Assembly (NCBI GenBank): GCA_041653995.1
Contig: JBAZEK010000001.1
Location: 107,474 to 171,473 of the forward strand
Source: Dehalococcoidia bacterium
GTDB lineage: Bacteria; Chloroflexota; Dehalococcoidia; GIF9; UBA5629
Reading direction: 5' to 3'
Length of the DNA stretch: 64,000 nt
Position numbers and translations under genes: made by a program. Below the pieces are notes generated by a model. That model ran no database searches and was not told the origin of the DNA. It was given only the letters and a program-made list of their open reading frames with translations. Shown piece by piece: positions 35,035 to 63,660 of this stretch. How positions within the stretch are numbered: the stretch's first letter is position 1; each line of letters opens with the position of its first letter.

Positions 35035-35117
35035 AGAATATATGCATTAATTAGGATGATCTTTTCTCTTACCCGCTTGAAGAAGCGTTAATTGGTGATT
35101 GCTATTAGGCTCATAAT

Positions 35118-35849
35118 ATGAAAATTGTCATCATAACCCTGATTTGCCTAGCAATTGGCGCACTTGCTGCTGGAGAAGCATTGGCAGTGGCTTCTACCAT
35201 TACTCCAGGATTAGTTTCAAGTAGTGGCGGCACTAGCAATTCTGCTAGCTACTCTGTTAATGGCATAGCTGGACAACCTGCTACAGGCTTGTCTCAAAGC
35301 CAGAATTTCGGCATATTTGCCGGTTTTATCACAGGTATGGAGTATCCAAGTCAACCTCCACCTTTCCCTACAACTACTAATATACTAACACCAGAAATAT
35401 CAACCATGATTTCGACTACACCACATGGTTCATCAATGCCAGCTACGATAGCACCTGCTCCGATGCAATTGCCAAATCTATTAGTTCAGAGCGCATCGCT
35501 ATCCACATCAAAAGTATTACCGGGGACACTTGTAACGGTAACCGCTAATATTGCCAACAAGGGAACTGTCAACGGGTCAACCAGGATAAAGCTATATGTC
35601 AACGGCGAGGAGGATTCCAGCCAGGGCGTCACAGTGGAAAGCGGCGGCAGCCGGCAGGTTTACTTTACAGTGAATAGAAGCCAGCCGGGAACCTATGACG
35701 TGTACGTAGGCGGTGTACAGGCCGGCACCTTTATGGTCGAGAATGAAATAGATCCAAATATCATCCTCTTATGCAGCTGCACATTAATATTGATTTCCCT
35801 TGCACTTGGTATAGTTTATGTACTGAGGCGGCGGAATTACAGTTATTGA
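35118..35849 (+). CDS. surface protein with signal peptide, CARDB-like domain and C-terminal TM anchor
   Basis: The signal peptide is MKIVIITLICLAIGALAAGEALA. The CARDB-like block is LPGTLVTVTANIANKGTVNGSTRIKLYVNGEE. The C-terminal hydrophobic segment is followed by RRRNYSY. Confidence 0.8.
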   Translation: MKIVIITLICLAIGALAAGEALAVASTITPGLVSSSGGTSNSASYSVNGIAGQPATGLSQSQNFGIFAGFITGMEYPSQPPPFPTTTNILTPEISTMISTTPHGSSMPATIAPAPMQLPNLLVQSASLSTSKVLPGTLVTVTANIANKGTVNGSTRIKLYVNGEEDSSQGVTVESGGSRQVYFTVNRSQPGTYDVYVGGVQAGTFMVENEIDPNIILLCSCTLILISLALGIVYVLRRRNYSY

Positions 35850-43613: not shown

Positions 43614-44402
43614 TTAAATTTTAGTCCATCTGTACCCGCTTAATGCCCAGAGCACCACGTTGGTTCCGTAGAATACCCAGACCAGGCAGAACATTACCTG
43701 TGAGACGTTTCCCAGGCCCAGGTTATAGACCTCCCCGAAAATCTCTGTAATGTACCAGCAGGTGGCTGCTATGGCCACCATCCAGGCATTGGGCGCGGGA
43801 TAGAGCTTGCGGCGCATCGTCTCCCACGCCAGCCAGGTCGTGGTGCAGAAGAAAGCTGTGTAAACCGGACCGAGCACGCCGTGCCCGACCCGCACGATGT
43901 CATTCCACAGGATCGCTATTACAATCACGGCTGAGCCGTAGATTAACACGGGAAGCCATAATTCAGACAGCCTGAACTTTTTGAAGTAACCGAAGCCGCG
44001 TCCTACGCGTATGATCAGGAAAATATGGGCGATAATGGAGAGCACGCCGCCGATCATGAAGACCCAGCCTCCCACGGTCATTCCTGGAACCGCAACCACC
44101 ACACTCATCAGTATATCCGTGGGCAGCATACAGCAGAACGCCAGCAGCAGCAGCGTCCAGTCATTTTTCTCCAGCGCATACCTTCCTGCGATAAGAACGA
44201 TGATCATCGACAACAGGGTGATACCCGGCTTGGCGATGGCGGGATAGAGACTGCCTGTGCCGTAGAGATAGTTGATCCAGTCGACGCCGAAGATTGATCC
44301 AGCCAGCAGCAGAGTGGCGCCCAGCAGCGCAAATACCCATATTCGCCTTGCGCCCTGCAATACCGCTCCCTGAAGCTGTCCATTACTCATCTTAACCTCC
44401 AA
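43614..44402 (-). CDS. polytopic integral membrane protein (possibly YhhN-like)
   Basis: It has about 8 hydrophobic segments. The family guess rests only on weak motif resemblance (AKPGITLL, LPTDILM). Confidence 0.7.
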   Translation of the reverse strand: MEVKMSNGQLQGAVLQGARRIWVFALLGATLLLAGSIFGVDWINYLYGTGSLYPAIAKPGITLLSMIIVLIAGRYALEKNDWTLLLLAFCCMLPTDILMSVVVAVPGMTVGGWVFMIGGVLSIIAHIFLIIRVGRGFGYFKKFRLSELWLPVLIYGSAVIVIAILWNDIVRVGHGVLGPVYTAFFCTTTWLAWETMRRKLYPAPNAWMVAIAATCWYITEIFGEVYNLGLGNVSQVMFCLVWVFYGTNVVLWALSGYRWTKI

Positions 44403-44438
44403 AACTCAAATCGGAGAGGTGGTTTTCTTTATCAGGAA

Positions 44439-44684
44439 TTAATCAAATAGCTCTTTAATAAGAGTATGCTTAGCCATTTCAAGGTATACTGATAGGTCGT
44501 TTATGATATTGTTCAGGGTGCCGACCCGTATAGGATTATGTGCCGGTATGGTTATATGATGCTCAGCGCCTTTGATATTACTGGTTATTTTGATGTGACT
44601 GCCGGCACGATGGCTTTCCCGATATCCATACCTCGTTAGAAGTGAAACAAGTTTCTCGCCACCGATATCACGCGGCAGCTTCAT
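44439..44684 (-). CDS. hicA: HicA-family toxin (mRNA interferase)
   Basis: Motifs are GEKLVSLLTRYGYRESHRAGSHIKI...IPAHNPIRVGTLNNII. It overlaps the upstream antitoxin-like gene by 4 nt. Confidence 0.8.
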   Translation of the reverse strand: MKLPRDIGGEKLVSLLTRYGYRESHRAGSHIKITSNIKGAEHHITIPAHNPIRVGTLNNIINDLSVYLEMAKHTLIKELFD

Positions 44685-44890
44685 ACTTTGATGACCTCGT
44701 CCTTTACCATGTGCAGCCTGATAAGCGCAGGCCGGTCACTTTCCGGAAAATGACACATAACCGCATCCAGCGCCATGGTTTTCAATTGCTCAATGTCATC
44801 GGCTTCTGTAAATATTGAATGGCCTAGTGCTTTCGCCTGGTAGCCCCCTTCGGGCGATTCTTCCACTAAAAAGATAATTTCCTCGGCCAT
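44681..44890 (-). CDS. hicB: HicB-like antitoxin (N-terminal domain only, UPF0150-like)
   Basis: 69 aa with IFLVEESPEGGYQAKALGHSIFTEADDIEQLKTMALDAV. No recognisable DNA-binding domain is present. Confidence 0.7.
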   Translation of the reverse strand: MAEEIIFLVEESPEGGYQAKALGHSIFTEADDIEQLKTMALDAVMCHFPESDRPALIRLHMVKDEVIKV

Positions 44891-45008
44891 TTGACTTCTC
44901 CTCTATTAAGTCGGCAACGTTGTCCAGAGCAGGTCGATTATCTATTAGTGTAACATAGTTTAATGATCTATTTAATTTTGCACTGCGTGACAGCCGGACT
45001 GCTGTAAT

Positions 45009-47060: not shown

Positions 47061-48191
47061 ATGACGATTCCGCGACCGTTCAAAACGACCTATGATTGGG
47101 ACTACATGGAAAAGGTGTTGAGGCGTGAAACGACGGAGGGGCCGGTGCCGCTCATTGAGTTGTTCCCGGATGCCGAGATCATGTCCGAGGTTACGGGAAT
47201 CGACTATCCCTCGGCCAGGGCCGTGGAACTTTCCACTAATACCGGTCAGTTGATCGATGACCGGGAAGCTCTGGATATGGGGATCAGGCTGATGGACCTC
47301 AGTATAGCCTTCAGCAAAGCGGTTGGATACGATTACGTGACAATGATCCCCATAGTCCCGCTCACCAAGACAAGAAGGGAACTGGCTGCGGATGACGACC
47401 CACGGCGGCAAAAACGCGCCTGGAAGGAGGAGGGCAAGGGTATTATCACCAGCCGCGCTGAATATGAAGAATACAAATGGCCTGCGCTGGATCAAATCAG
47501 TCTGCTGCCGCTGGATTACGCGGCCGGTTGCATACCTACCGGCATGAAGATCATGGTCATGTACAATGGCATCTATGAAGACCTGTCGGAGCTGATGGGG
47601 ACACAGCAAATGGCTATCAAAAGCATCGAGGAGCCTGATCTGGTCGAGGATATAATCGAGCAACTGACGCGCATTGCTGCACATGCAGTAGGTTTGTGCG
47701 CGGCTCACCCGGGCACCGGCGCCATTTTTTATTCCGATGACCTGGGCTTTAAAGGCGGCACTATTTTATCGCCGCGCTTTTTGCGGAAATACTATATGCC
47801 CAGGCTGAAACGCATCAGCGATGCCTGTCACAGGCACGGGAAACTGTTCCTGCTCCACTCTTGCGGACAGGTTATGTCCATCATGGATGACCTGATAAAC
47901 GCGGGTATAGATGCCAGGCACAGCTTCGAAGACACCATCTTGCCGGTAGAGCAGTGGTACGATAAATTTCACGACCGATTGGCTATCCTGGGGGGAGTAG
48001 ATATGGACCTGATGGCCAACGGCACTGCGGAGCAGGTGGCGCAGCGAACGCGCCGGATACTCGAGCACTGCGCCCCGGGTGGGGGATACTGCATGGGAAC
48101 GGGTAATTCAGTGGCTAACTATGTAAGAATCGAGAATTACTATGCTATGATCGACGAAACACGGAAATGGAATGTGGAGCATGGGTTTTGA
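47061..48191 (+). CDS. uroporphyrinogen decarboxylase (URO-D) family protein, MtaA-like methyltransferase homolog
   Basis: GGAGGAGG lies upstream. The Zn-type motif is LLHSCGQV, with a later Cys in GGYCMGTGNS. The length is 376 aa. Confidence 0.8.
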   Translation: MTIPRPFKTTYDWDYMEKVLRRETTEGPVPLIELFPDAEIMSEVTGIDYPSARAVELSTNTGQLIDDREALDMGIRLMDLSIAFSKAVGYDYVTMIPIVPLTKTRRELAADDDPRRQKRAWKEEGKGIITSRAEYEEYKWPALDQISLLPLDYAAGCIPTGMKIMVMYNGIYEDLSELMGTQQMAIKSIEEPDLVEDIIEQLTRIAAHAVGLCAAHPGTGAIFYSDDLGFKGGTILSPRFLRKYYMPRLKRISDACHRHGKLFLLHSCGQVMSIMDDLINAGIDARHSFEDTILPVEQWYDKFHDRLAILGGVDMDLMANGTAEQVAQRTRRILEHCAPGGGYCMGTGNSVANYVRIENYYAMIDETRKWNVEHGF

Positions 48192-52331: not shown

Positions 52332-52763
52332 ATAAATACCTCGATTCTCGTAAAATTTTGAAAGGAATACCAGGGGGCATTTTAGCAGCGTATGAGTGTA
52401 AACGTCAAGGTTGTTGACGTGTGATCAAAGCTAACGCGGTTCACATCCTGACAGCAGGATTAAAACGGTCGAAATCAATTGGACTGTATGACATGCTATA
52501 GAGTAGCAGGAATCACCGACGTCGTTTGCATCGAACGTTGCACGCCGCATTAATGGGTAGGAGGTATCGGCAATGAGGAAGTTGTTATAAATCGCACTGG
52601 TCCAGTTGATCTTGATCGTGATGGCAGTGCCCGGATGCCGGCTACTAATACAGCGCTTCCTCCGCCTCCGCCGCTCCAGCCATACATAACCGGAGCTTCC
52701 GCTCGCGGACAATATTTGAAAACTGGTCATCAAACCGGAAAGCTTTTTGCTCACAGACAGTCA

Positions 52764-52772
52764 TGCTATAAT
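52764..52772 (+). promoter_or_regulatory. extended -10 element (TGCTATAAT) upstream of the TetR gene
   Basis: TGCTATAAT lies 43 nt upstream of the ATG at 52816. Confidence 0.4.
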
Positions 52773-52815
52773 GAATATTATTCAATAACATCGCTTGTTT
52801 TGAGATGATTTAGTT

Positions 52816-53460
52816 ATGAATCTAAGAGCAAGAACCCTTGAAGCCAAACAGCAAAAAAGGCAGAAGATTCTTGAGGCAGCCAAGGAGCTTTTCTTCAATA
52901 ATGGCTACTACGGCACTTCTATCGAGATGATCACTGAGAAAGCTGGTGTAAGTACGGGGACTTTTTACCTGTACTATACGAACAAAGTAGAGATCTACAA
53001 GGCCCTGCAAAATGAAGGCCTTGATATTCTTGTCGATAAGATTACGAAGGTTATATCGTGGCCTGGCATGAGTTCCCTTGCGAAACTCTCAGAGATCGCA
53101 CGGACTTATTTTAATTACTATAATGAGCATAGGGAATATTTTGACATAATATCCATATTGAGTGCCATACCGGATGAGCTCAAGGAAACGCAAACAGAAA
53201 TCGGCAGGGTCATAGACAATAAGGCATATAATTTATTAAAGGTGATTGAAGGTGTGTTGAAAGAAGGTATAGAAAATGGTGAATTCATCTCGATGGATAC
53301 GTGGAAAGCAACAAATGCGTTCTGGGGCTTGATGGATGGCCTTATTCTACTCGACGAACGGAATAATACACGGAACGTAATTGGGATTGGTCTGGAAGAT
53401 TTGATTAAACAGGCACTCGAAATGGCATTCTATGGTATAGTGAAGCAGAGACCTGTATGA
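52816..53460 (+). CDS. TetR/AcrR family transcriptional regulator
   Basis: The N-terminal HTH is ILEAAKELFFNNGYYGTSIEMITEKAGVSTGTFYLYYTNK. The length is 214 aa. Confidence 0.9.
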   Translation: MNLRARTLEAKQQKRQKILEAAKELFFNNGYYGTSIEMITEKAGVSTGTFYLYYTNKVEIYKALQNEGLDILVDKITKVISWPGMSSLAKLSEIARTYFNYYNEHREYFDIISILSAIPDELKETQTEIGRVIDNKAYNLLKVIEGVLKEGIENGEFISMDTWKATNAFWGLMDGLILLDERNNTRNVIGIGLEDLIKQALEMAFYGIVKQRPV

Positions 53461-53770
53461 AAGTTTAAAAATAGCATAATTTGGTCGTGATTTCCTGAAA
53501 TGTGTTAATAAGCAGGATTTCATGTGACAACTGAGAGTTCGCCGGTAACAAAATTCTTGTCAGATTGCAATATATCAAACATTTTTTATTGGCCAGTCTA
53601 TTACTATCAAAGTAAGGTCCTATACTTCTCCCATTAAGACAGATCTGCTGCAGACTGTTTGAGTTTTCGTTTTTCTTCCCCCAGAACTATAACCGTCTCA
53701 CCCCATCCGCATCTCCATCCCACGTACCCCCTCTAACGCAAAAAGTTTGCTCTACGGAGTTTAAAAATAT

Positions 53771-53799
53771 TTGACAATTGAACCAGATTCAGTTATAAA
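53771..53799 (+). promoter_or_regulatory. near-consensus sigma70-type promoter of the GRE operon
   Basis: TTGACA (53771-53776), an exactly 17-nt spacer, then TATAAA (53794-53799). It lies about 97 nt upstream of the GRE1 ATG. Confidence 0.55.
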
Positions 53800-53811
53800 T
53801 ATAGCCGAGGT

Positions 53812-53825
53812 TAGAACCGGTTATA
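53812..53825. promoter_or_regulatory. 14-bp imperfect palindrome, candidate repressor operator
   Basis: TAGAACC|GGTTATA is self-complementary at 12 of 14 positions and lies just downstream of the predicted start site. ATAACCGG recurs at 52686-52693 upstream of the tetR promoter. Confidence 0.3.
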
Positions 53826-53895
53826 TTTTGCAGGAAGATGATTAAGAGAGTGCCCAAGACCGCGATTCAACAATAATTAAAAGGGGATAGCAGGA

Positions 53896-56475
53896 ATGAA
53901 TATAGCAGATCAGGCCAGGGAGAGGATAAAGAGAATTCATAAGTGCTATCTGAAGGATATTTCGGTTATCTCCATCCAGCGGGCTAGGTACTATACTGAA
54001 AAATGGCGTGAGACTGAAAACAGCACGCTTTCGCCGGCTGTGAGAGTGGCACTTGCCGTGAAACATGTCTATGAAAACATGGACATCTGTATCCATAGGG
54101 ATGACAGGATTGCCGGCACCTGGACCGAGAATTACCTGGGCATACCGATCGATATTGAACGTGGTCTGTTTAATAAGGTAATGGAGATCGAACTCGACCG
54201 GCCTTCCATGATCCGATACCTTGTAAAGACAAACCTCAGTTTCTTTATCTACATGTTCAGGAAATATGGGATTCTGAATCTCTATCGAAACCTGAAACAT
54301 ATCCAGGCAGTCGGTGCCGCCATGCCCAGCATCGGCACCAAGCCCGTGGATAAGCGCAATATCAATCCCTATTCGATCCGGCCTAAAGACCGGAAGATAC
54401 TGCAGAAAGAATTATTGCCTTACTGGGAGGGAAAGACCATTGTCGATGTGTTCAGGAAAGAGCTCGAATCTTCAAATATATATAAAGGAGATATGCTCAG
54501 TTTTGCTATAGCCCTTCCTTCAACCACTTCACGAAACGACACCATTATCTCGCCGGGTGCTGGAATCGGTAACTGGCAGGGACATGTGATTCTCGACCAT
54601 GAGAAATACCTGCGACACGGTCTTATCGGTATGCGCTCTGCAGTTCAGGGATTAATTAAACAGAACGGAAACCTCAGCCCCGATGAACGCGCATTCCTTG
54701 ATTCCATTGATATCGTTCTTGAGGGAGTGATGATCTATGCTCGCAGGTTAACGGAAAAACTGAAGCAGGAACTGGAGCGTGAGAATAATCCGGAACAAAA
54801 GCAGATACTCTCAGAAATGCTGGAGATCTGTGAGCACGTACCTCTGAACCCAGCACGCACCTTCCGCGAGGCAACGCAGTCGTACTGGACCGTGAAGACA
54901 GCAGTCGCGCTTGCCATTCCATTCAATGTTCACACGCCCGGCAGGCTTGACCAAATCCTTTTTCCATATTACCGCGATGATATAGCGGAAGGTCGTATCA
55001 CCAGGGACGAAGCCTGTTGGCTGTTACAGGAGCTGTTCCTGAAGGTTATGAGCCACAATATGCGGCCATATTCCAATTTTACCGCCTACTTCGCCAGCCG
55101 TTACGAAGGCTCGGAACCGGTGACGCTCGGCGGGCAAACCGTGAACGGGGAGGATTTATGCAACGAGCTAACCCATGTAATACTGGATGCCGCAGAACAG
55201 TCCAAGGTTGTGCTGAATTTTGCGGTTCGCTTTAACAGGAATACCCCTGACGAGTTATACATGAGGTTAGCCGATATGTACTATAACGGCTACTCAAGTG
55301 TTTCTATGCTGAATGATGATGTCTGTCTCAAGGCCATGGAGAAACGGGGATTTCCTCAAGAGGACGCCAGAGAGTATGCCATGGGAAGTTGTGTTGACCT
55401 GTGCGTGCCCGGCAAGATGGGCAGTATGTCGTATTCCGCATTGCTGCTCTGTCGTACCTTGGATATTACGTTGAGAAATGGGGATGCCCGTACTCTTGTG
55501 GGCACGGTGGCAAACGTCGGGCTCAAAACCGGCGAACCGGAGGGGTTTTCTTCTTTCGGTGAGTTCGTTGATGCATATGTCAGGCAGGCTGCTTTCCAGA
55601 TTGAGAAGATTGCAGAGGCGTCCTGCATCAGAGACCGGCTATATGCCAAATATCTTCCTGCCCCGCATATCTCGGCATTCATCCAGGGATGTCTGGAAAA
55701 GAAGAAGGATGTCACCCGTGGTGGCGGCATCTATGATCTTGAGGGTATCCTCTACATGAGTAGCATCGCCAATGTGGTTGACTCGCTCTATGTGATCAAG
55801 AAACTCATCTTTGAACGGCGGGAGTTTACTTTCAAAGAACTGCTGAGTGCCATCGATAACAACTTTACCGGCTATGAGCATATCCATCGCATGATCCAGG
55901 GAGTGGAGGGTAAATGGGGCAATGGCAATCCCGAATCGGACGACTTTGCCAGGGACCTTACCACCCGTTTGTTCACTGAGACATTCAAATACCGCACCTA
56001 CAAAGGGGGATTCATAGCTCCATTTGTCAACAGTATGACCTCACATACCTATGACGGGCGCATCTGTATAGCAACTGCCGATGGCAGGAAAGGCGGCAAA
56101 CCGTTTGCCTCGAGCTGCAATCCTTACAATGTGGACAAGCACGGGCCGACAGGAGTGCTTCGCTCGGTTGCCACAATGGATTTCACCAACGTGCTCGGGG
56201 TTGCGGTTAATCTCCGAATGCACCCCTCAGCGATCGGTAAAGATACGGAAAGCAGAAAGAAGTGGATATCCTTGGTCAAGACATACTTCGGTATGGGCGG
56301 CGAACAGCTTCAGCCCACCGTGGTCTCTACAGAGGTGCTGAGGGCGGCCCAGAAGAATCCCGAGAACTACATGGATGTGGTTGTAAAGGTCGGTGGCTAC
56401 AGTGCTTGCTTCGTGGATCTCGGGTATGAGATCCAGGAGGAGATTATTTCTAGATCAGAGCACAAAATGGTGTAG
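53896..56475 (+). CDS. glycyl-radical enzyme, PFL2/glycerol-dehydratase-like superfamily, divergent (GRE1)
   Basis: 859 aa. The N-terminal block is ISIQRARYYTEKWRETE. The Cys loop is GSCVDLCVPGK (Cys499). The C-terminal glycyl motif is VVKVGGYSACFVDLGYEIQEEIISR (Gly834). Confidence 0.9.
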   Translation: MNIADQARERIKRIHKCYLKDISVISIQRARYYTEKWRETENSTLSPAVRVALAVKHVYENMDICIHRDDRIAGTWTENYLGIPIDIERGLFNKVMEIELDRPSMIRYLVKTNLSFFIYMFRKYGILNLYRNLKHIQAVGAAMPSIGTKPVDKRNINPYSIRPKDRKILQKELLPYWEGKTIVDVFRKELESSNIYKGDMLSFAIALPSTTSRNDTIISPGAGIGNWQGHVILDHEKYLRHGLIGMRSAVQGLIKQNGNLSPDERAFLDSIDIVLEGVMIYARRLTEKLKQELERENNPEQKQILSEMLEICEHVPLNPARTFREATQSYWTVKTAVALAIPFNVHTPGRLDQILFPYYRDDIAEGRITRDEACWLLQELFLKVMSHNMRPYSNFTAYFASRYEGSEPVTLGGQTVNGEDLCNELTHVILDAAEQSKVVLNFAVRFNRNTPDELYMRLADMYYNGYSSVSMLNDDVCLKAMEKRGFPQEDAREYAMGSCVDLCVPGKMGSMSYSALLLCRTLDITLRNGDARTLVGTVANVGLKTGEPEGFSSFGEFVDAYVRQAAFQIEKIAEASCIRDRLYAKYLPAPHISAFIQGCLEKKKDVTRGGGIYDLEGILYMSSIANVVDSLYVIKKLIFERREFTFKELLSAIDNNFTGYEHIHRMIQGVEGKWGNGNPESDDFARDLTTRLFTETFKYRTYKGGFIAPFVNSMTSHTYDGRICIATADGRKGGKPFASSCNPYNVDKHGPTGVLRSVATMDFTNVLGVAVNLRMHPSAIGKDTESRKKWISLVKTYFGMGGEQLQPTVVSTEVLRAAQKNPENYMDVVVKVGGYSACFVDLGYEIQEEIISRSEHKMV

Positions 56476-56480
56476 AGGAT

Positions 56481-56510
56481 ATGGCTTCAGGGATTGTATT
56501 CGACATTTAG
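56481..56510 (+). pseudogene. decayed 5' stub of a GRE-activase gene
   Basis: The ATG lies 5 nt after the GRE1 stop and encodes MASGIVFDI*. The functional activase starts MKGLVFDIQ, 8 nt after the GRE2 stop. A weaker resemblance may extend to about 56546. Confidence 0.45.
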
Positions 56511-56596
56511 GTGGTGGAGCTTAGTAGTATTGGTGGTATTGTCAGGTAATTCGGGGTAATAATGGCAGGGATGATAATAGTCATAGGAGACATTAG

Positions 56597-59173
56597 ATGT
56601 ATATGAAGGATAAGGCGTCGGAACGCATCAAACGAATTCGCCGCAGGTACCTTGAGGATATGCCCGGCATCTCCATTGAACGTGCGCGATATTATACGGA
56701 AAAGTGGCGTGAAACAGAGAAGAGCAACTTTTCGCCGGGAGTGCGGGTAGCCCTCTCCATGAAAAATGTATATGAGAAAATGCGTATAAATCTGGATCCT
56801 GACGACAGGATCTGCGGTACGTGGACAGAGTATTATCTGGGGATTCCTATTGATATCGAACGGGGTCTTTTCAATGAGACATTAAAGATTGAGCTGGGCA
56901 GACTCTCGATGGCGGGGCACCTGGCTAGATCAAACCTGAGATTTATCGGAAGCATGATAAGGCGCTACGGTTTATTGACCCTTTACAGGAATATGAAACA
57001 TACGGCGGATGTGGGCGTGGCGATGCCGAGTATCGGATTAAGTCCAATGTACAGCCGCAAAATAAATCCCTACAGGATAACATCAGGTGATAAAAAAGAA
57101 CTCCACAACAAGCTTTTCCCTTATTGGAAGGGGAAAACCATTGCCGATCTTCTTAAAACAGCTCTGGAGAGTTCAAACGTTTATACCGGAGATATCCTGA
57201 GCTTTTCGGCAGCGCTTCCATCCACTACGTCCAGGAATGACACGATCATCTCAACCGGGTCTGCAATAGGCACCTGGCAGGGACATTTGATTCTGGACCA
57301 TGAGACGCCGCTGAAGAAGGGACTGCTGGGGATGCATGAAGAAATAAGAGAACGACTGAATAGCAAAGACTTAACATCAGATCAACGTGAATTTCTGAAA
57401 TCAATTGACATTGCTTTAGAAGGGGTCATTATTTACGCCCGAAGGCTAGTGGAAACGATATTGCGAGAGCTTGAACAGAACAAGGATCCCCAAAGAGGCA
57501 GATTATTGCAGCGGCAACTTGAAATATGTAAGAGAGTTCCACTGTACCCGCCGCAGAGCTTTAGTGAGGCCGTCCAATCGTATTGGACGATAAAAACCGC
57601 GGTCGAACTTTCGATGCCATTCAACGTGCACGCACCTGGGAGGTTGGACCAATTGTTTTACCCATATTACGTCAAGGATATGGAAGAGGGTAAGATCAGC
57701 AGGGAAGAAGCACGTGAATTACTTGAAGAGCTCTTTCTCAAAGTCATGAGCCATAATATGAGGCCGTATTCCAATTTCATCAGCTATTTCACCCAGCGAT
57801 ACGAAGGGTCTGAGCCTGTAACAATGGGAGGACTTACCGCCAACGCGAAGGATGCCACTAACGATCTAACGTATGTGATGCTGGAAGCCGCAGCAGATTC
57901 AAAGGCAGCGCTGAATTTCGTTGTCCGACTGCATAAGAATTCCCCCCCGGAGCTTTTTAGGAAGGTTGCCGAGCTTCACCATGAGGGTATCTCCAGCATA
58001 TCAGTCATGAATGATGAAGTGAGTATCAAAGCCCTGGAAAAGCGCGGTTTTTCGCGCGAGGATGCGCTTGGCTATGCTATTACCGGTTGTGTTGACATGG
58101 TGGCCCCGGGCAAAACCGGTGGAGAGGCATTCTGCGCATTATTATTAAGCCGGATTCTCGACATGACTCTTCGCAATGGCGATTCGCAGACCGTGATAGG
58201 CATGGTTGAAGGCATCGGACTTAAGACAGGAAATCCTGATACTTTTATAACCTTCGATCAACTGGTCGATGCATTTGTAGAACAAACAGCCTTTCAGATT
58301 AAAAAGCTCGTTGAGGCAACATATATACGAGACAGTCTGTATGCTGAACACCTTCCTGCGCCTTATATCTCGGCTTTCATGGGTGGATGTTTGGACCATG
58401 GCAGGGATATAACGGCCGGCGGTGCAGTATATGACCTTGAAGGCATTCTATTTATGAACAGCATAGCAAACGTCGTTGACTCGCTCTTCGTGATGAAAAA
58501 ACTTATCTTTGAACAAAAGCGGTTTACGTTTAAAGATCTTTTAAATGCCGTCGATAAGAACTTTGTGGGATATGAGAATATCTATCAATGGATAAACGAA
58601 GTGGACGGCAAATGGGGCAACGGGAATCCGGAGTCGGACTCTATAGCACACGATGTGACAAAGCGTATTTTCGAAGAGACTTTCCACTACCATACGTATA
58701 AAGGAGGTTTTTATGCCCCCTTTGTCAACAGTATGACTACGCATACATATGACGGTCGCATTTCAACTGCCACTCCTGATGGCAGGAAGGCCGCAAAGCC
58801 ATATGCAGCCAGCTGTAATCCTTACAACGTGGAAAAATGCGGTATCACCGGTGTGCTGCGATCGGTGGCTGCTATCGATTTTTCCAATGTCATGGGTTGT
58901 GCAGTAAATATCAGATTGCACCCATCCTCCATCGGCCAAACAGAGGAGGCAAGGAAGAAATGGATCGATCTATTGAAAACGTATTTCCGATTGGGGGGCG
59001 AACAGCTTCAGCCGACAGTGGTTTCAACTGAGGTGCTTAAAGCGGCGCAGAAGGATAGGGAGAATTACAGGAATGTCATTGTGAAGGTCGGCGGTTACAG
59101 TGCATATTTTGTAGACCTTGGATATGAAATACAGAATGAAATCATCGAGAGGACTGAACACAGGGGAGTTTAA
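56597..59173 (+). CDS. glycyl-radical enzyme, paralog of GRE1 (GRE2)
   Basis: 858 aa, colinear with GRE1 at roughly 60% identity by eye. The Cys loop is TGCVDMVAPGK (Cys498). The glycyl motif is IVKVGGYSAYFVDLGYEIQNEIIER (Gly833). Confidence 0.9.
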   Translation: MYMKDKASERIKRIRRRYLEDMPGISIERARYYTEKWRETEKSNFSPGVRVALSMKNVYEKMRINLDPDDRICGTWTEYYLGIPIDIERGLFNETLKIELGRLSMAGHLARSNLRFIGSMIRRYGLLTLYRNMKHTADVGVAMPSIGLSPMYSRKINPYRITSGDKKELHNKLFPYWKGKTIADLLKTALESSNVYTGDILSFSAALPSTTSRNDTIISTGSAIGTWQGHLILDHETPLKKGLLGMHEEIRERLNSKDLTSDQREFLKSIDIALEGVIIYARRLVETILRELEQNKDPQRGRLLQRQLEICKRVPLYPPQSFSEAVQSYWTIKTAVELSMPFNVHAPGRLDQLFYPYYVKDMEEGKISREEARELLEELFLKVMSHNMRPYSNFISYFTQRYEGSEPVTMGGLTANAKDATNDLTYVMLEAAADSKAALNFVVRLHKNSPPELFRKVAELHHEGISSISVMNDEVSIKALEKRGFSREDALGYAITGCVDMVAPGKTGGEAFCALLLSRILDMTLRNGDSQTVIGMVEGIGLKTGNPDTFITFDQLVDAFVEQTAFQIKKLVEATYIRDSLYAEHLPAPYISAFMGGCLDHGRDITAGGAVYDLEGILFMNSIANVVDSLFVMKKLIFEQKRFTFKDLLNAVDKNFVGYENIYQWINEVDGKWGNGNPESDSIAHDVTKRIFEETFHYHTYKGGFYAPFVNSMTTHTYDGRISTATPDGRKAAKPYAASCNPYNVEKCGITGVLRSVAAIDFSNVMGCAVNIRLHPSSIGQTEEARKKWIDLLKTYFRLGGEQLQPTVVSTEVLKAAQKDRENYRNVIVKVGGYSAYFVDLGYEIQNEIIERTEHRGV

Positions 59174-59181
59174 GATACTTC

Positions 59182-60090
59182 ATGAAGGGCTTGGTTTTCG
59201 ATATACAATACTACTCCATTTATGATGGCCCCGGTATACGCAGCACAATTTTTCTGAAGGGATGTCCGCTCCGTTGTTTATGGTGCCACAACCCCGAGTC
59301 ACAGTCTGGTATGGCGGAGATGTCATATTTTGCAGAACGGTGTGCACGTTGCGGCGCCTGCATCAAAGCCTGCCCGCAGGCAGCGCTTAGCATGACTGGC
59401 AAAGGAGTCCTGCGGGATCGTGAAAAATGCTCTGTTTGTGGTAAATGTGCCGCTGTCTGCAGGAACAACGTCATGGAAAAAATCGGACGTGAGTGCGACT
59501 CGGAAGAAATAGCGCTTCTAGTCTCCAGGGATAGAGATTTCTACCAGGCTTCGGGGGGTGGAGTGACGGTGTCAGGGGGTGAACCGACAGTTCAGACATC
59601 GTTTCTCTTCGATCTTCTAATAAAGTTGAAAGCCTTGGGTATCCATACCGCTGTAGAAACCAGTGGATGTTTTAATACGGATTCTCTTGAGAAACTGCAA
59701 ACGCTTTCTGACCTTATTCTCTTCGATCTCAAACACTCTGATCCGGTAAAACATCGTGAGTATATCGGCACTGGTAATGAAAGAATACTAGAGAATTTCA
59801 GTCAGTTCGTTGAGAGAATCGGAAGCAAACGGATCATACCGCGAATTCCGGTAATCCCGGGTTTCAATGCTGATGCCAAATCAATGCATGGAATTTTATC
59901 GGTTCTCAAAGAATCCTCCTATAAGGGACCAGTACATCTCATGCCGTATAACAGAATGGCTAAAACAAAATACGAAAAGATCAACAGAGGCTGCGACTAT
60001 CGCGACATGGGCGAGCTAACCGACGCGATGAAGACGGAAATAGCCGGGATAGTTGAATCATATGGTTACGAACCATTGTTCAATCAATAG
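59182..60090 (+). CDS. glycyl-radical enzyme activating enzyme (radical SAM)
   Basis: The N-terminus is GLVFDIQYYSIYDGPGIRS. The radical SAM motif is C28-PLR-C32-LW-C35. Two ferredoxin-like motifs are present (CARCGACIKACP and CSVCGKCAAVC). Confidence 0.9.
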   Translation: MKGLVFDIQYYSIYDGPGIRSTIFLKGCPLRCLWCHNPESQSGMAEMSYFAERCARCGACIKACPQAALSMTGKGVLRDREKCSVCGKCAAVCRNNVMEKIGRECDSEEIALLVSRDRDFYQASGGGVTVSGGEPTVQTSFLFDLLIKLKALGIHTAVETSGCFNTDSLEKLQTLSDLILFDLKHSDPVKHREYIGTGNERILENFSQFVERIGSKRIIPRIPVIPGFNADAKSMHGILSVLKESSYKGPVHLMPYNRMAKTKYEKINRGCDYRDMGELTDAMKTEIAGIVESYGYEPLFNQ

Positions 60091-60150
60091 GATAATTCAG
60101 CTACAAATCTGTAACACAATAGGTAATTAAGAAATGTGTGAGGAATCCAT

Positions 60151-61521
60151 ATGAAAGACATTCAGCAGGTCTCAAATGTGAACACGGTCGAAGGCAGCGA
60201 ACGCCTCTCTCTGGGTGTTAAGTTGGGTTATGGCATAGGCAACTTTGCCTTTAACTTAGCGTTCCAGGTTGTCGCCCTTTTCCTGATCTTCTTTTATACT
60301 GATGTGTTTATGATCAGCGCGGCCTTTGCAGGGGCCATTTTTTTTGTATCTAAAGCCTGGGATATTGTCTTCGATCCGATGGTAGGATACTTTTGCGATC
60401 ATACAAAGTCACGATGGGGGAAGAAACGCCCATATATTTTGTTTGGATCGATATTATTAGGTATCTCGATGATATTGCTTTTCGCCTCCCCGAACCTTTC
60501 AGAAACAGACCGAATAATCTATGGATTTGTTACATTTATAGCCTTCTGTTCGGCAATCACTGTGGCGAATGTTCCCTACGGCTCCCTTACGGCCGATCTC
60601 ACGCTTGATGCCCACGAGAGGTCGTCTCTTTCGGGCTATTCCATGGCCTTCGCGCTTGCAGGAACGCTTGCTGCTGCGGGCGCAACGAAGCTACTGGTGG
60701 GATCTTTTGCTGACGAGACTACAGGATTTCGAGCTATGGGGATAATATATGCAGTTATCGTTGTCGTCTTGCTGATGATTACATTTGCGAGCGTCAAAGA
60801 GAGGGGTTTGTCTTCGGGAGAGGTAAAGCAGCCGCTTAAGAAGGATTTGGCGCTGGTAGTAAAAAATGGCCCCTTTCTCATACTAACCGGAGCGACTACT
60901 CTGATGATGGTTGGGATAAGTATTGTGGGAGTGGTGGTAAACTATTATTTTAAATATAACCTCCAGATGGAATGGATGATCCCCATCGCCTTCCTCCTAC
61001 TCTTCGTCACTGCGGGCATTTTCCTGCCTCTTTTCGTGTTTATCTCAAAAAAGAAGAGCAAGAAATTTGCCTTTAACACAGGCCTGATAATTTTTTCCAT
61101 CGCACTGGTACTTCTGTATTTTTTCAGTGATAAAGGCATTGAGTATATAGTTCCGATCTTATTCCTGGCTGGTGTGGGGATGGCAACCGTTTACCTGAGC
61201 CCGTGGTCGATGATTCCCGATACGGTTGAATTCTCCCAATGGAAGACGGGATTGCGCAGAGAAGGGATCCTTTATGGTTGTTTCTGGGTTAGCTTTAAAA
61301 TAGGAGCCGCGCTTGCGGGTTTTATTGCCGGGCAATGCCTCACTCTGGCGAACTATATTCCAAACATTGCACAGAGTGAAGGTACACTATTTATGATCAA
61401 GCTTTTAATGACTGCCGTGCCACTCATTTTCATTCTGGCTACTATTACGCTTATTTCTTTCTATCCCATCGATGCTGAAATGCATCGTAAAATGCTTGAT
61501 GAGATCAAGTCAGGAGCCTGA
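60151..61521 (+). CDS. glycoside-pentoside-hexuronide (GPH) family cation symporter (MFS)
   Basis: GAGGAA lies upstream. The GPH-type motif is WDIVFDPMVGYFCDHTKSRWGKKRPY. It has about 12 hydrophobic segments. Confidence 0.9.
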   Translation: MKDIQQVSNVNTVEGSERLSLGVKLGYGIGNFAFNLAFQVVALFLIFFYTDVFMISAAFAGAIFFVSKAWDIVFDPMVGYFCDHTKSRWGKKRPYILFGSILLGISMILLFASPNLSETDRIIYGFVTFIAFCSAITVANVPYGSLTADLTLDAHERSSLSGYSMAFALAGTLAAAGATKLLVGSFADETTGFRAMGIIYAVIVVVLLMITFASVKERGLSSGEVKQPLKKDLALVVKNGPFLILTGATTLMMVGISIVGVVVNYYFKYNLQMEWMIPIAFLLLFVTAGIFLPLFVFISKKKSKKFAFNTGLIIFSIALVLLYFFSDKGIEYIVPILFLAGVGMATVYLSPWSMIPDTVEFSQWKTGLRREGILYGCFWVSFKIGAALAGFIAGQCLTLANYIPNIAQSEGTLFMIKLLMTAVPLIFILATITLISFYPIDAEMHRKMLDEIKSGA

Positions 61522-61571
61522 TTGTAAATGATGGGGACCTGTAATGGCGTTTGTGGGCAGCTCGTTGCAAG

Positions 61572-61635
61572 AGGAGACATCAGAACGCATTAGTAAGGGT
61601 TCTACGCGAGTACCTTCAGGATATGCACTGCGTTT
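61572..61635 (+). pseudogene. decayed 5' stub of a third GRE gene (GRE2-like), start codon deleted and frameshifted
   Basis: It shares nucleotide blocks with the GRE2 5' region: AGGAGACAT (9/9), GAACGCAT (8/8), GTACCTT (7/7) and AGGATATGC (9/9). Translations in two frames give SERISK and LREYLQDM, against GRE2 SERIKRIRRRYLEDM. Confidence 0.55.
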
Positions 61636-61731
61636 TAAACAATTTTTATAACTGAAAAAGTTCATAATGATGAATCTATTCTGAGGTGAATTTAAAGGCC
61701 ATCGTAAAAGAAAAAAGGTGTAAATAACATT

Positions 61732-61833
61732 ATGTATGAAGATGTTGATATGCCAATAATTAGCGAACGTTATCTCGAAGATTTAAGGTTATTTCAATTG
61801 TTCGTAGAAACACCTGTAAGGAGTAACTCATGA
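61732..61833 (+). CDS. possible 33-aa upstream small ORF (MYEDVDMPIISERYLEDLRLFQLFVETPVRSNS)
   Basis: AAGGTG lies about 11 nt upstream of the ATG. The TGA stop overlaps the ATG of the next gene (ATGA). There is no homology evidence. Confidence 0.2.
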   Translation: MYEDVDMPIISERYLEDLRLFQLFVETPVRSNS

Positions 61834-62999
61834 ACAGCAACGAACGAACCGCAATCGCACTCAATCTGGGAATACCTGATCGTGTGCCTATCTACTCCGA
61901 GACCGTGATACAGAACCAGATTTACGAAATCCTGGGCGAGAAAAACAAGGCCGTTCCGCTACGCCTGATCCAGGAAGGCTTGACAGGGACGTTATTCAAA
62001 CTGGCTGCCCCACTGATAAATCGTATTGGCTGGTCCAATCGACAGGTAGAGAAATTTATGTCAAAAAAAATTGAAGCCGACATCGTCCTGGGATACGATT
62101 GTTCCCTGGCGGGGTACTCGGCGATTTTCAATCTAAAGGGTAACCGGCAGGCGACCGACATTTGGGGTAAGCTATACGATTTGGTAGCCGACCCGGATGG
62201 AAATGTGGACACGCCTATGTACCGTCAGGGATTGCTGACCACGCCGGAGCTATGGGACGCCTGGCCTCACCCCACTCCCGATCGATTGTATAAGATGCTG
62301 TATCCTATCTTCGCCGACCTGCAGAAACGCTATGGCAAGCGGATTTATCTGCTGGGCAGCCTGTCGTGTGCTGGGTTGTGGGAGGCGTCCACCGGGGGCA
62401 TGGGCTTGACAGCCTTCTCAGTTGCGCTACACCGCAATCCCGACTTTGTGCGGCGCATGGCAAAGTATTATGAGATGATCTGGCTGGCTACCATCCACGC
62501 TACTGCCGATGCTGGAATGCCGGCTTTAGTTTACGAGGACGATTTGGCCTACAAGAGCGGACCGATGGTTTCGCCACGTGTGCTGGATGAATTTTTCGGC
62601 CCCGGCCTGCGGAGAATCACCAAAGAGGCTCACAAACGCGGCTTGAAGATCATCATCCATTGCTGCGGCAACGTGAACCAGTTGCTGGATCTTTTCGTGG
62701 ATTGGGGCTTCGATGGTGCACAAGCATTGGAGCCAACTGCCGGGGTAGACCTGGCGGAGGTGAAAAAACGAGTAGGGAAGCGGATGTGCATTTTTGGTAA
62801 CCTTGACATCTCCCATGTGATGAGCCAGGGTACACGGGAGGAAGTGGAGGCAGCGGTAAAGTCGGCGATACAAGCTGCTGCTCAGGATGGTGGGTTCATC
62901 ATGGGTAAGACCAACTCGCACTATGCGGTGAAAGTCGAAAATACCCGCTGGATGATCGAATATACCCACCGCTACGGGGCGTATCCTATCGCACATTAG
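61830..62999 (+). CDS. URO-D family methyltransferase (MtaA/MT-type, corrinoid-dependent system component)
   Basis: AAGGAG lies upstream. The Zn-type motif is IIHCCGNV. It is immediately followed by a corrinoid protein gene. Confidence 0.85.
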   Translation: MNSNERTAIALNLGIPDRVPIYSETVIQNQIYEILGEKNKAVPLRLIQEGLTGTLFKLAAPLINRIGWSNRQVEKFMSKKIEADIVLGYDCSLAGYSAIFNLKGNRQATDIWGKLYDLVADPDGNVDTPMYRQGLLTTPELWDAWPHPTPDRLYKMLYPIFADLQKRYGKRIYLLGSLSCAGLWEASTGGMGLTAFSVALHRNPDFVRRMAKYYEMIWLATIHATADAGMPALVYEDDLAYKSGPMVSPRVLDEFFGPGLRRITKEAHKRGLKIIIHCCGNVNQLLDLFVDWGFDGAQALEPTAGVDLAEVKKRVGKRMCIFGNLDISHVMSQGTREEVEAAVKSAIQAAAQDGGFIMGKTNSHYAVKVENTRWMIEYTHRYGAYPIAH

Positions 63000-63021
63000 A
63001 TTGAAATCGATGAGGTGAGCA

Positions 63022-63660
63022 ATGAACGAACATGAAGCTATACAAGGGGTGTTGGCAACTGTTGTCAGCCTGGATATCGACGGAGTGACAGGGCAGGTAA
63101 GCGCTGCTCTAAAGGCGGGCGCCGATCCGCGCAATGTGCTGAACGAGGGTCTGAGCGCCGGCATGAGGATCGTGGGCGAGCGATTCCAGTCAGGTGAATA
63201 TTTCCTGACCGAGCTGTTGCTGGCGGGAGAGGTGATGAAAGCCGGCTTGGTCCCGCTGGAGCCATTGCTGGTCAATACCGATATTCAGGGCAAAGGCACC
63301 GTCGTGCTGGCAACCGTCAAGGGAGATATCCATGACCTCGGCAAGAACCTGGTGGGTATGATGCTGAGCGCCGCTGGTTTTGAGGTGATCGACCTGGGGT
63401 CCGATGTTGCCTCTCAGCGGATTGTTGAAGCAGTACGCAAACACAAGGCAAAAATCGTGGCGCTCTCTATGCTGCTAACACCCATGGTTATCTCCTTACG
63501 GTCCGCGGTGGAGGAGATAACCATGGCCGGGCTGCGGGATCAAGTAAAAATCATCATTGGCGGTGCCTGCACCACGCCGGTCCTGGCAAAAGAGCTGGGC
63601 TGTGATGCCCATGGAGAAGATGCGATGGCGGCCGTCTATCTCTGCGAGAAATTTATTTAA
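63022..63660 (+). CDS. corrinoid (cobalamin-binding) protein
   Basis: It has a B12-binding cap plus a Rossmann domain, with DxHxxG (GDIHDLGKN), SxL (LSMLLT) and GG (IIGGA). Confidence 0.9.
   Translation: MNEHEAIQGVLATVVSLDIDGVTGQVSAALKAGADPRNVLNEGLSAGMRIVGERFQSGEYFLTELLLAGEVMKAGLVPLEPLLVNTDIQGKGTVVLATVKGDIHDLGKNLVGMMLSAAGFEVIDLGSDVASQRIVEAVRKHKAKIVALSMLLTPMVISLRSAVEEITMAGLRDQVKIIIGGACTTPVLAKELGCDAHGEDAMAAVYLCEKFI

Follow-up and report, generated by a model that had tools for sequence, protein, structure and literature searches.

A horizontally mobile Dehalococcoidia gene module encodes two paralogous glycyl-radical enzymes of an uncharacterised clade, with a candidate role in sugar-acid or polyol dehydration

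Gene content, borders and mobility of the module

This study concerns a compact gene block within a 64,000-nt stretch of DNA ('the window') from an uncultured Dehalococcoidia bacterium (contig JBAZEK010000001.1, 1.28 Mb). Open reading frame (ORF) listing combined with Pfam and NCBIfam scans revealed, at window positions 52816-61521 on the plus strand, genes for a TetR-family regulator, two intact, oxygen-sensitive glycyl-radical enzymes (GREs; GRE1 and GRE2), one radical-SAM activase and a GPH-family symporter. The gene set, its one-strand order, the coordinates and the 435-nt gap separating the TetR and GRE1 genes all agree with a first reading of the sequence (hereafter, the original prediction). 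The features of the locus are:

52816..53460, plus strand: TetR-family regulator, 214 aa (PF00440, E 3.9e-14)
53771..53799, plus strand: sigma-70-type promoter of the GRE operon (TTGACA at 53771-53776, 17-nt spacer, TATAAA at 53794-53799), read from the sequence
53777..53798, no strand assigned: probable TetR operator AATTGAACCAGATTCAGTTATA inside the promoter spacer, containing the inverted repeat GAAC-N3-ATTC (53780-53790)
53812..53825, no strand assigned: palindrome TAGAACCGGTTATA with the 8-bp perfect core AACCGGTT, just 3′ of the -10 hexamer
53896..56475, plus strand: GRE1, 859 aa, the 'SCVD' paralog (PFL-like domain PF02901, E 1e-135; Gly_radical domain PF01228, E 1.6e-21); key residues H230, C499, D501 and radical Gly834 (codon 56395-56397)
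56597..59173, plus strand: GRE2, 858 aa, the 'GCVD' paralog (PF02901, E 9e-137; PF01228, E 3.9e-19); key residues H230 (57284-57286), C498 (58088-58090), D500 (58094-58096) and radical Gly833 (59093-59095)
59182..60090, plus strand: radical-SAM glycyl-radical activase, 302 aa, common to both GREs (TIGR02494, 318.5 bits against a cutoff of 174.35)
60151..61521, plus strand: GPH-family (MFS_2) cation symporter, 456 aa (TIGR00792, 343.5 bits against a cutoff of 231)
61686..61767, plus strand: gene stub, consisting of a ribosome-binding site and the first ~26 codons of a Zn-dependent alcohol/polyol dehydrogenase (tblastn/blastx to the Zn-dependent alcohol dehydrogenase of locus L096 and to L083_0)
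61830..63660, plus strand, outside the module: URO-D-family methyltransferase (389 aa, 61830-62999) and corrinoid protein (212 aa, 63022-63660), from Pfam/NCBIfam

Both GREs, 63% identical to each other, combine a PFL-like barrel with a C-terminal Gly-radical domain, carry a catalytic Cys and are encoded next to a cognate activase, as is typical of the superfamily. The activase harbors a C28-x3-C32-x2-C35 motif along with two ferredoxin-type auxiliary 4Fe-4S motifs, and matches the Radical_SAM, Fer4_12 and Fer4 families of Pfam. The best named relatives of the symporter are the glucuronide transporter, YagG and MelB, for all of which it scored under their own NCBIfam cutoffs. In line with the origin of the window, proteins at 97% identity are present in Dehalococcoidia metagenome-assembled genomes (MAGs).

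The five module genes have a GC content of 0.41-0.50 (mean 0.459), as compared to 0.540 ± 0.027 in the other 41 ORFs of the window, and a GC content at third codon positions (GC3) of 0.51 versus 0.642 ± 0.073. This places them 3 (GC) and 1.8 (GC3) standard deviations below the remaining genes. The computed profile thus bears out the proposed accessory island, and the original estimate of 33-57% GC against flanks of 55-65% was right in direction and size, although its absolute figures were only rough. More decisive for island status than composition is a DNA comparison with a related 1.2-Mb metagenome contig, L096 (related loci are referred to by L numbers), in which identity to the window copies is 96% for GRE2 and 90% for GRE1. 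Nucleotide homology of 91-93% between the two is confined to window positions 52816-61533, starting exactly at the TetR start codon—the left edge of the module—and ceasing around the end of the GPH gene, its right edge, with neither flank in common. Since the homology stops at both borders, the unit comprising TetR, GRE1, GRE2, activase and GPH occupies two chromosomal positions in close relatives. No integrase, transposase, tRNA gene or flanking or terminal repeat was identified at the module. In our view, the block is best explained as a catabolic module of 8.7 kb (52816 to about 61540) that is horizontally mobile and under the control of TetR.

A further relative, L085, sits at the same chromosomal position as the window module. 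Its flanks are 89% and its TetR-GRE-activase stretch 79-80% identical to the window, and its GPH stretch reaches 97.6% (L085:11210-12179 versus window 60126-61095). This pattern indicates that L085 is a recombination mosaic, with recent recombination or gene conversion restricted to the transporter. At the left module junction of L096, a 98-codon ORF just 5′ of the TetR gene (L096:5840-6136) opens with a duplicate of the first ~20 TetR codons (MNMRTRTLEAKQQKGQKI), that is, a 5′ stub of TetR.

The Zn-dependent alcohol dehydrogenase (Zn-ADH) stub downstream of the GPH gene encodes VNLKAIVKEKR / KKKGVNNIMYEDVDMPIISE, contains a 1-nt frameshift near 61718 and breaks off where the methyltransferase gene begins. 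In a blastn comparison, window 61632-61767 was 77% identical to L096 14953-15090. The gene order on one strand of L096 is FGGY kinase, TetR, GRE1, GRE2, activase, GPH, two Zn-ADHs, 2-hydroxyacid dehydrogenase, Eda aldolase, PfkB kinase, IolO-like epimerase and a short-chain dehydrogenase/reductase (SDR); the part 3′ of GPH is of very low GC content (0.33-0.38). As the stub matches the gene that lies 3′ of GPH in L096, the window module stems from a version linked to an operon of the sugar-acid type, which this locus has since lost. The original prediction had listed two gene stubs and seen in them 'recent duplication and decay after acquisition'. One stub is real, but no second one was detectable in 52332-52815 or 53461-53895, nor did the intergenic gaps contain remnants of GRE, GPH, TetR, EF-G, methyltransferase, Fe-dependent alcohol dehydrogenase (Fe-ADH), FGGY or DeoC genes. 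What decayed is the adjoining Zn-ADH/sugar-acid operon, and the duplication, as detailed below, is old.

The near-consensus promoter sits 97 nt 5′ of GRE1. It was read by eye, since the automated promoter scan demands a T at position 6 of the -10 element and hence did not list it. The promoter block is kept in L001, L083 and L084. Within it, AATTGAACCAGATTCAGTTATA is the only intergenic block common to the window, L001, L083/L084 (which have different flanks) and L085, where the repeat reads GAAC-ATC-GTTC; the surroundings diverge. Many related loci carry a TetR gene alongside the GRE gene. The palindrome at 53812-53825, originally proposed as the target of TetR, does exist, but it is kept only in the 97%-identical relative L001 and not in L085, L083 or L084. 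Judged by this conservation, the element at 53777-53798 is the more probable TetR operator, with the palindrome possibly serving as a second one. An Rfam scan (E up to 0.1) returned no riboswitch or other Rfam family in the module.

The upstream flank encodes housekeeping or otherwise unrelated functions: RF-1, PrmC, a URO-D protein, ETF beta and alpha and, on the minus strand, EF-G. A functional tie of the downstream methyltransferase/corrinoid pair to the module is uncertain. Elsewhere in the window, a second low-GC patch at 33412-35849 (GC 0.46, GC3 0.41) may be another acquired segment; its two ORFs encode a 540-aa protein with a purple-acid-phosphatase-N-like and a C-terminal AhpC/TSA-redoxin domain, and a 243-aa CARDB-domain protein. 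Going by the annotation of L086/L087, a HicA-toxin-family gene and a small partner ORF lie at ~43614-45000, upstream of the module between a beta-propeller (PD40/Tricorn-like) gene and RF-1.

A bounded clade of GREs with non-canonical catalytic loops

The solved structures closest to GRE1 and GRE2 are those of 1,2-eliminases, with HpsG (6LON) at E 1e-103 and 1e-107, followed by CutC, glycerol dehydratase (GD), HypD and propanediol dehydratase (PD). Both proteins nevertheless remained under every GRE cutoff of NCBIfam, at the equivalog and the subfamily level: 441.5 and 455.5 bits for TIGR01774 (PFL2-3 subfamily; cutoff 678.2), 366.7 and 368.7 for TIGR04394 (CutC; 1050), 419.7 and 423.2 for NF043068 (HypD; 1100), 416 and 437 for NF048011 (C–S lyases; 1000), and 328 and 345.7 for PRK09983 (YbiW/PflD; 1109). 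An AlphaFold2 model of GRE2 (predicted local distance difference test score, pLDDT, 82.9; predicted template-modeling score 0.89), when compared by Foldseek, gave template-modeling (TM) scores of about 0.8 at 24-28% identity to PD, GD, HypD, CutC and HpsG; no solved GRE exceeded this range of identity. PD and GD provided the best fold matches (TM 0.81-0.82), and the X-succinate synthases came last (TM 0.76). The phmmer alignments and the model further revealed a clade-specific insertion of ~50 residues at positions ~100-140, folded as a helical hairpin (H102-124 and H126-139). The view that the two proteins have PFL2/1,2-eliminase architecture and yet correspond to no characterised enzyme was thereby upheld, the comparison with characterised GREs having yielded neither a high-identity match nor identical loop residues.

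Scanning GTDB species representatives, we found the clade to be sharply bounded, with about 55 loci at 43-97% identity, followed by a drop to ≤34% for all other GREs. All of the loci stem from MAGs, namely of Dehalococcoidia, Syntrophaceae, Desulfobacterales, Desulfomonilia, Spirochaetota, Myxococcota, Actinomycetota and many Promethearchaeota (Asgard archaea), with members in Hermodarchaeota and Lokiarchaeota MAGs and an abundance in Lokiarchaeia and Hermodarchaeia. No functional name for any clade member appeared in the sources examined, and searches of the accessible literature returned neither a published description of the clade nor anything relevant on a GRE tied to polyols, deoxyribose, inositol, hexuronates or 2-keto-3-deoxygluconate (KDG). 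GRE clades that await characterisation are not rare. A 2026 review of the superfamily stresses that entire clades have yet to be assayed and that archaeal PFL-like GREs are without any assigned function (PMC13450708). The superfamily and its general chemistry are known; new here are a large, widespread clade with a CXD motif, its paralog pair, the insertion and the carbohydrate context. That GRE1 and GRE2 are functional, eliminase-like members of such an uncharacterised clade we regard as very likely.

All characterised GRE eliminases and isomerases keep a CXE motif, the Glu of which hydrogen-bonds a substrate hydroxyl (PMC13450708). In place of the CXE found in GD, PD, HpfG, HypD, HpyG, HpzG, CutC, IslA, IseG, HpsG, HplG, YbiW and PflD, the Cys loop reads GSCVD in GRE1 and TGCVD in GRE2. 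The triplet C498-V499-D500 (residues were mapped from phmmer alignments and are given in GRE2 numbering) is invariant in the clade alignment and in 129/129 retrieved homologs. The Gly loop reads VKVGGYS rather than RVxG[FWY], and every one of the 134 homologs with a recognisable Gly loop has KVGGYS, with Lys for Arg. The catalytic loops are thus non-canonical, as originally proposed; the acid function may have been kept, by means of the Asp, despite loss of CXE.

The general acid His164 of GD corresponds to the invariant H230, and GD Cys433 and Glu435 correspond to C498 and D500. GD His281 and Ser282 map to N343 and V344, GD Asp447 to F512, the amine-binding Asp278 of HypD likewise to N343 and CutC Phe395 to S405. 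The sulfonate triad of HpsG—Arg183, Gln187 and Arg672—aligns with G221, H230 and F709, which are invariant or nearly so in the clade. Therefore, the Cys/His/acid set of a C–O-cleaving eliminase is kept, and the substrate-binding residues of characterised members are absent.

The clade divides into two subclades. Subclade I, to which the window GREs belong, is marked by the motifs CVD, WQGH, NVHxPGR and PF[VI]xSMTxHTYDGR, and subclade II by CVE, IQGH and NLHCFGR. Fixed differences between them (H386/Q, E403/L, Y718/I, D500/E, F512/A and F709/Y, subclade I first) render subclade I more polar at pocket-lining sites. Subclade II, with its more hydrophobic pocket signature, is likewise uncharacterised and probably acts on a non-sugar substrate. 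Its loci (L026, L029-L031, L033, L035, L036, L038, L040, L048, L051, L080 and ~20 metagenome loci, L145-L168) contain an operon for TetR, GRE, activase, an NAD-epimerase/dehydratase-family protein, an SDR, an acetoacetate-decarboxylase-like protein and an acyl-CoA dehydrogenase, sometimes joined by a URO-D protein fused to an HMG-CoA-reductase-N-like domain.

As for the paralog pair, the GRE1-type motif xSCVD...PGKMGSMS was found in 12/129 homologs, the GRE2 type being TGCVD...PGKTGG[EI]. Wherever the contig permits, a GRE1-type gene adjoins one of the GRE2 type (window, L001, L006, L085, L092/093, L096, L003/L100, L004, L089, L090 and L124), and such pairs recur across phyla, in Syntrophaceae and Desulfobacterales MAGs and in metagenome contigs without taxonomic assignment. 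GRE1 grouped, in a neighbour-joining tree, with the second GRE copies of Syntrophaceae and Desulfobacterales loci (L003, L004). Together with the 63% identity between the two paralogs, this recurrence and grouping imply an old duplication that has been maintained, as opposed to a recent one. Residues fixed differently in the two paralog types concentrate on the Cys loop (I495M, T496A, G497S, T507M, G509S), with L231V located beside H230. Their placement points to altered specificity rather than decay, and renders the earlier suggestion of two paralogs for two related substrates plausible.

Genomic neighbourhoods and candidate substrates

The window contains no genes for an alcohol or aldehyde dehydrogenase, kinase, aldolase, microcompartment or sulfite-related function. 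The absence of such genes, as originally noted, holds for the window but not for orthologous modules, which encode Fe-ADHs, aldehyde dehydrogenases (ALDHs), kinases and aldolases. We compared 83 loci obtained from a genome scan and a metagenome scan and dereplicated at 90% GRE identity (43 in subclade I, 32 in subclade II), assigning each gene within 8 kb to a family by its similarity to references annotated with Pfam/NCBIfam, and comparing the subclades by Fisher's test. Confined to subclade I (0/32 in subclade II in each case) were GPH transporters (15/43; p 8e-5), FGGY kinases (13/43; p 4e-4), Fe-ADH, Eda and 2-hydroxyacid dehydrogenase (8/43 each; p 0.018), cupin sugar-phosphate isomerase and metallo-beta-lactamase (MBL) lactonase-like proteins (5/43 each), DeoC (4-5/43) and ALDH (3/43). 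Conversely, NAD-epimerase-family and acetoacetate-decarboxylase-like proteins were seen in 15/32 subclade II and 0/43 subclade I loci (p 2.5e-7 each), acyl-CoA dehydrogenase in 13/32 versus 2/43 (p 2e-4) and SDR in 11/32 versus 3/43. A bulk Pfam scan of 77 same-strand partners returned the same ranking. This ortholog comparison, which the original prediction had proposed, hence places subclade I in a context of sugar kinases, aldolases and GPH transporters.

Some of these partners pass NCBIfam equivalog cutoffs, namely DeoC (198.7 > 117.3 bits), Eda (300 > 275) and xylulokinase (XylB; 388.7 > 380.25), and the IolO-like 5-keto-L-gluconate epimerase just misses its own (273 versus 300 bits). PfkB kinase likewise belongs to the partners of the CVD enzymes, through the operon of L096, which recurs in rearranged form in L083. 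By its gene content, that operon resembles the end of hexuronate/keto-gluconate routes finishing in KDG kinase and 2-keto-3-deoxy-6-phosphogluconate aldolase, and it contains no conventional sugar-acid dehydratase of the UxaA, UxuA or IlvD type. Other arrangements are GRE(s)-activase-FeADH-FGGY-DeoC-cupin-ALDH(-2-hydroxyacid dehydrogenase-DHDPS) in L089/L101 and TetR-GPH-GRE-activase-FeADH in L082/L098. Microcompartment, sulfite-handling or succinate-synthase accessory genes did not recur in the 83 loci.

Two further observations concern individual neighbourhoods. Directly 5′ of the GRE pair in two unrelated loci (L089:3566-6389 and L090:7315-9019) are genes for SCP2-domain and M24 (creatinase/prolidase-type) peptidase-family proteins, the M24 protein of L089 being fused to a GFO_IDH_MocA oxidoreductase. 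The Asgard CVD loci L016, L018, L022 and L024 feature Eda aldolase, GPH transporter, a geranylgeranyl-reductase-like FAD protein, PIG-L deacetylase, DUF2804, class III aminotransferase, M29 aminopeptidase and a long FGGY kinase, a set that may point to an archaeal substrate of the amino- or N-acetyl-sugar type.

By analogy with characterised eliminases, we favour—with moderate confidence—the view that the GREs of the module act as radical dehydratases on a sugar acid or polyol taken up from outside. We infer a reaction type, a substrate class and roles for Asp500 and His230 as follows. The GPH symporter would import a sugar-derived polyhydroxy compound, the likeliest being an aldonic or uronic-acid-derived sugar acid, or an alditol. 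The single activase would install the glycyl radical on both GREs (Gly834 in GRE1, Gly833 in GRE2). As in GD and PD, the Cys498 thiyl radical (GRE2 numbering) would then take a hydrogen from a carbinol carbon, with Asp500, in place of the CXE Glu, deprotonating the hydroxyl to give a ketyl radical. Departure of the neighbouring hydroxyl as water, aided by His230, and return of the hydrogen from Cys498 would yield a deoxy-keto sugar such as a 2-keto-3-deoxy-aldonate or a 2-deoxy-aldose. On an aldonate route, the KDG-type 2-keto-3-deoxy acid could proceed via PfkB or FGGY to Eda or a DHDPS-family aldolase; on an alditol route, the 2-deoxy-aldose could be passed via FGGY to DeoC (like Eda, a class I aldolase), and the resulting acetaldehyde to Fe-ADH or ALDH. 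These downstream kinase and aldolase steps would be those encoded in related genomes and lost from the window locus, where the Zn-ADH stub remains.

We think it probable that the paralogs, whose main differences map to the Cys loop, each handle one of two stereoisomers and release a common product. KDG is the shared dehydration product of mannonate, altronate and gluconate; by our reasoning, ribitol and D-arabitol would both yield 2-deoxy-D-ribose. Given this convergence, a pair of paralogs for stereoisomers is the natural reading, paralleling YbiW and PflD. The latter are GRE paralogs that turn C2-epimeric sugar phosphates into one product, which is then cleaved by an aldolase (PMC13450708).

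Several points weigh against this assignment. The substrate is deduced from gene neighbourhood only, for a clade known from sequence, and the neighbourhoods are heterogeneous (DeoC/Fe-ADH; Eda/PfkB; aminotransferase and deacetylase in Asgard archaea), such that the clade may cover several substrates. We do not choose a single substrate, given that the end route suggested differs between the DeoC-type, Eda/PfkB-type and Asgard contexts. The window itself is devoid of the downstream genes, and about half of the CVD loci lack a sugar gene within 8 kb, partly owing to short contigs. Non-radical dehydratases for sugar acids already exist and a selective reason for a radical enzyme is not evident; GPH transporters, moreover, typically carry glycosides, not free aldonates or alditols. 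Finally, the AlphaFold2 model of GRE2, which recovered the fold and the insertion, has low confidence in the predicted substrate-lining loops 217-226, 499-510 and 713-718 (active-site pLDDT < 50) and thus gave no pocket.

Small diols offer the foremost alternative, albeit an unlikely one. In this scheme, isomerisation, phosphorylation and aldol cleavage of a 6-deoxy-sugar or pentose leave lactaldehyde or glycolaldehyde, from which Fe-ADH forms a diol; this diol, of the 1,2-propanediol, glycerol or ethylene-glycol type, is then dehydrated by the GRE as an electron-sink step. PD and GD being the best structural matches and the general-acid His being kept would suit this proposal, as would the Fe-ADH, closest to lactaldehyde reductase and encoded directly 3′ of the activase in 8 loci, and the ALDH in L089 and L101. 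However, the diol-binding residues of GD/PD are replaced (Ser282 to Val344, His281 to Asn343, Asp447 to Phe512, Glu435 to Asp500), identity to PD and GD amounts to only 26-28%, and no locus contains microcompartment shell genes. Conserved polar pocket-lining residues (H386, E403, Y718, R389, H716) suggest a larger polyhydroxy ligand, and minimal modules of transporter plus GRE (window, L082) favour a transported primary substrate. Ranked next, and unlikely as well, is a ring-opening isomerisation of anhydro-sugars in the manner of YbiW/PflD, with Fe-ADH reducing a hydroxyacetone or aldehyde fragment. Here, paralogous GREs that act on C2 epimers and feed an aldolase provide a precedent (PMC13450708). 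The context holds a kinase, an aldolase and a lactaldehyde-reductase-like Fe-ADH, and ketyl formation followed by beta C–O scission would need the same Cys/acid-base set. Yet YbiW and PflD belong to the more distant solved relatives (E 1e-69 to 1e-79 versus 1e-107 for HpsG), keep CXE and define a model, PRK09983, for which our GREs score 328-346 bits against 1109. The aldolases found, DeoC and Eda, are not of the type expected for 1-deoxy-fructose-6-phosphate.

The adjacency of corrinoid methyltransferases raises the improbable option of a lyase for a methylated substrate—an O-methyl sugar or cyclitol (4-O-methyl-glucuronate, pinitol) or a quaternary amine—with the URO-D/corrinoid proteins demethylating it before the GRE step or accepting methyl groups from the GRE product. 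The pair adjoins the window module, and its orthologs (86% nucleotide identity) are again found beside a rearranged module in L092/L093; URO-D/corrinoid genes are also present in the vicinity in L049, L011 and L089, flanking the GRE pair in the last. However, the association is not significant (3/43 CVD versus 6/32 sister-clade loci, p = 0.16) and the URO-D neighbours share no more than 23-36% identity, which is why we demoted the methyltransferase link to a rival explanation. The L096 module has no methyltransferase neighbour, its homology block excludes these genes, and the CutC equivalog is missed by far (367-369 versus 1050 bits), with no MttB-type methylamine methyltransferase seen. Adjacency may also be due to chance, given another URO-D gene upstream in the window (47061-48191). 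As an observation in its own right, the URO-D genes and corrinoid protein around the module (window 47061-48191, 61830-62999 and 63022-63660; L001:17143-18189) form an O-demethylase/methylotrophy-like arrangement. The original prediction had taken the GPH gene as a hint at a sugar-type or sulfosugar-like compound. The neighbourhoods speak for the former, but sulfonate C–S lyases or dehydratases (of dihydroxypropanesulfonate (DHPS), isethionate or sulfoquinovose products) are highly improbable. The GPH family does include a sulfoquinovose transporter. In addition, the top PDB and NCBIfam matches are of the HpsG and HpfG types, L083 contains a weak SftI-like isomerase match (66.8 bits; cutoff 700) and, in one locus, L090, genes for TauE and an alkylsulfatase lie at a distance of a few kb. 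Against this, the Arg183/Gln187/Arg672 triad of HpsG, present also in IslA and IseG, is Gly221/His230/Phe709 here, scores of 416-437 bits fall far under the 1000-bit equivalog cutoffs, and no sulfite reductase or exporter recurred in the 83 loci. We rejected a sulfonate substrate on the absence of the triad. Least credible of all, to the point of being negligible, are hydrocarbon-activating X-succinate synthases, as assumed for the Hermodarchaeota 'Ass/Bss'. Clade members do occur in Hermodarchaeota and Lokiarchaeota MAGs, and the Hermodarchaeota enzymes were assigned on 29-33% identity to AssA and BssA (PMC8163825). But benzylsuccinate synthase (BSS) and (1-methylalkyl)succinate synthase (MASS) are the weakest PFL2-type matches (E about 1e-53, TM 0.76), the 83 loci have no conserved small-subunit, CoA-transferase or beta-oxidation genes, and the eliminase-type His and acid dyad is kept in a carbohydrate-catabolism context. 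The similarity ranking and context led us to reject this reading; the GRE of a limonene study, also considered, is a true succinate synthase and does not belong to this clade.

Returning to the dehydration of sugar acids or polyols, a bolder version can be put forward tentatively, as a minority expectation: the CVD clade could comprise the first glycyl-radical sugar-acid/alditol dehydratases, using Asp for the Glu base, replacing UxaA/UxuA/IlvD-type enzymes under anaerobic conditions and feeding Eda or DeoC. If true, this would provide the first functional assignment for archaeal PFL-like GREs, and some Asgard 'alkyl/benzylsuccinate synthase' annotations would denote carbohydrate enzymes. A small set of enzymes, the GREs enable anaerobes to accomplish difficult chemistry; with every substrate class added, another pathway has come to light (choline to trimethylamine, hydroxyproline, sulfonates, anhydro-sugars). 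The present clade is widespread in anoxic sediments, in at least six bacterial lineages and in Asgard archaea. Knowing its substrate would mean a radical step gained for the anaerobic breakdown of sugars, sugar acids or polyols in the subsurface carbon cycle, a test of Asp as a substitute for the conserved Glu base, and the correction of a likely misannotation as pyruvate formate-lyase or hydrocarbon-activating enzymes.

Comparison with characterised systems

The best sequence matches, at ~28% identity, are HpsG, the (2S)-DHPS sulfolyase of Bilophila wadsworthia (6LON), and the DHPS dehydratase HpfG. They share with the module enzymes the PFL2 fold, the catalytic Cys and the C-terminal Gly loop, and likewise have a dedicated activase carrying two auxiliary clusters, whereas the clade is set apart by Gly/His/Phe in place of the triad, CXD in place of CXE, the hairpin of ~50 residues and scores less than half of the cutoff. 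The B12-independent GD (1R8W/1R9D) and PD (5I2G, 9RCO) have the Cys and the general-acid His in common with the clade, and the vicinal-hydroxyl elimination they catalyse is what we propose here, too; instead of a microcompartment and a diol pathway, the present enzymes are found with a transporter in a sugar kinase/aldolase context. The PFL2 of Archaeoglobus fulgidus (2F3O) and the Asgard 'Ass/Bss-like' GREs are likewise archaeal PFL2-type enzymes of uncertain function. However, 2F3O is only about 25% identical, and the clade described here combines a CVD motif with a carbohydrate context rather than hydrocarbon-pathway genes.

YbiW and PflD (8ID7, 8ID0, 8YJO), the enzymes of 'anhydroglycolysis', are the only characterised GREs that act on sugars. 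They differ from the module enzymes in their CXE motif, in that their substrates are phosphorylated by the phosphotransferase system before the GRE step, and in having one activase each, as opposed to the common activase of GRE1 and GRE2. With a deoxy-keto sugar as their product, they nonetheless represent the closest analogy for the module.

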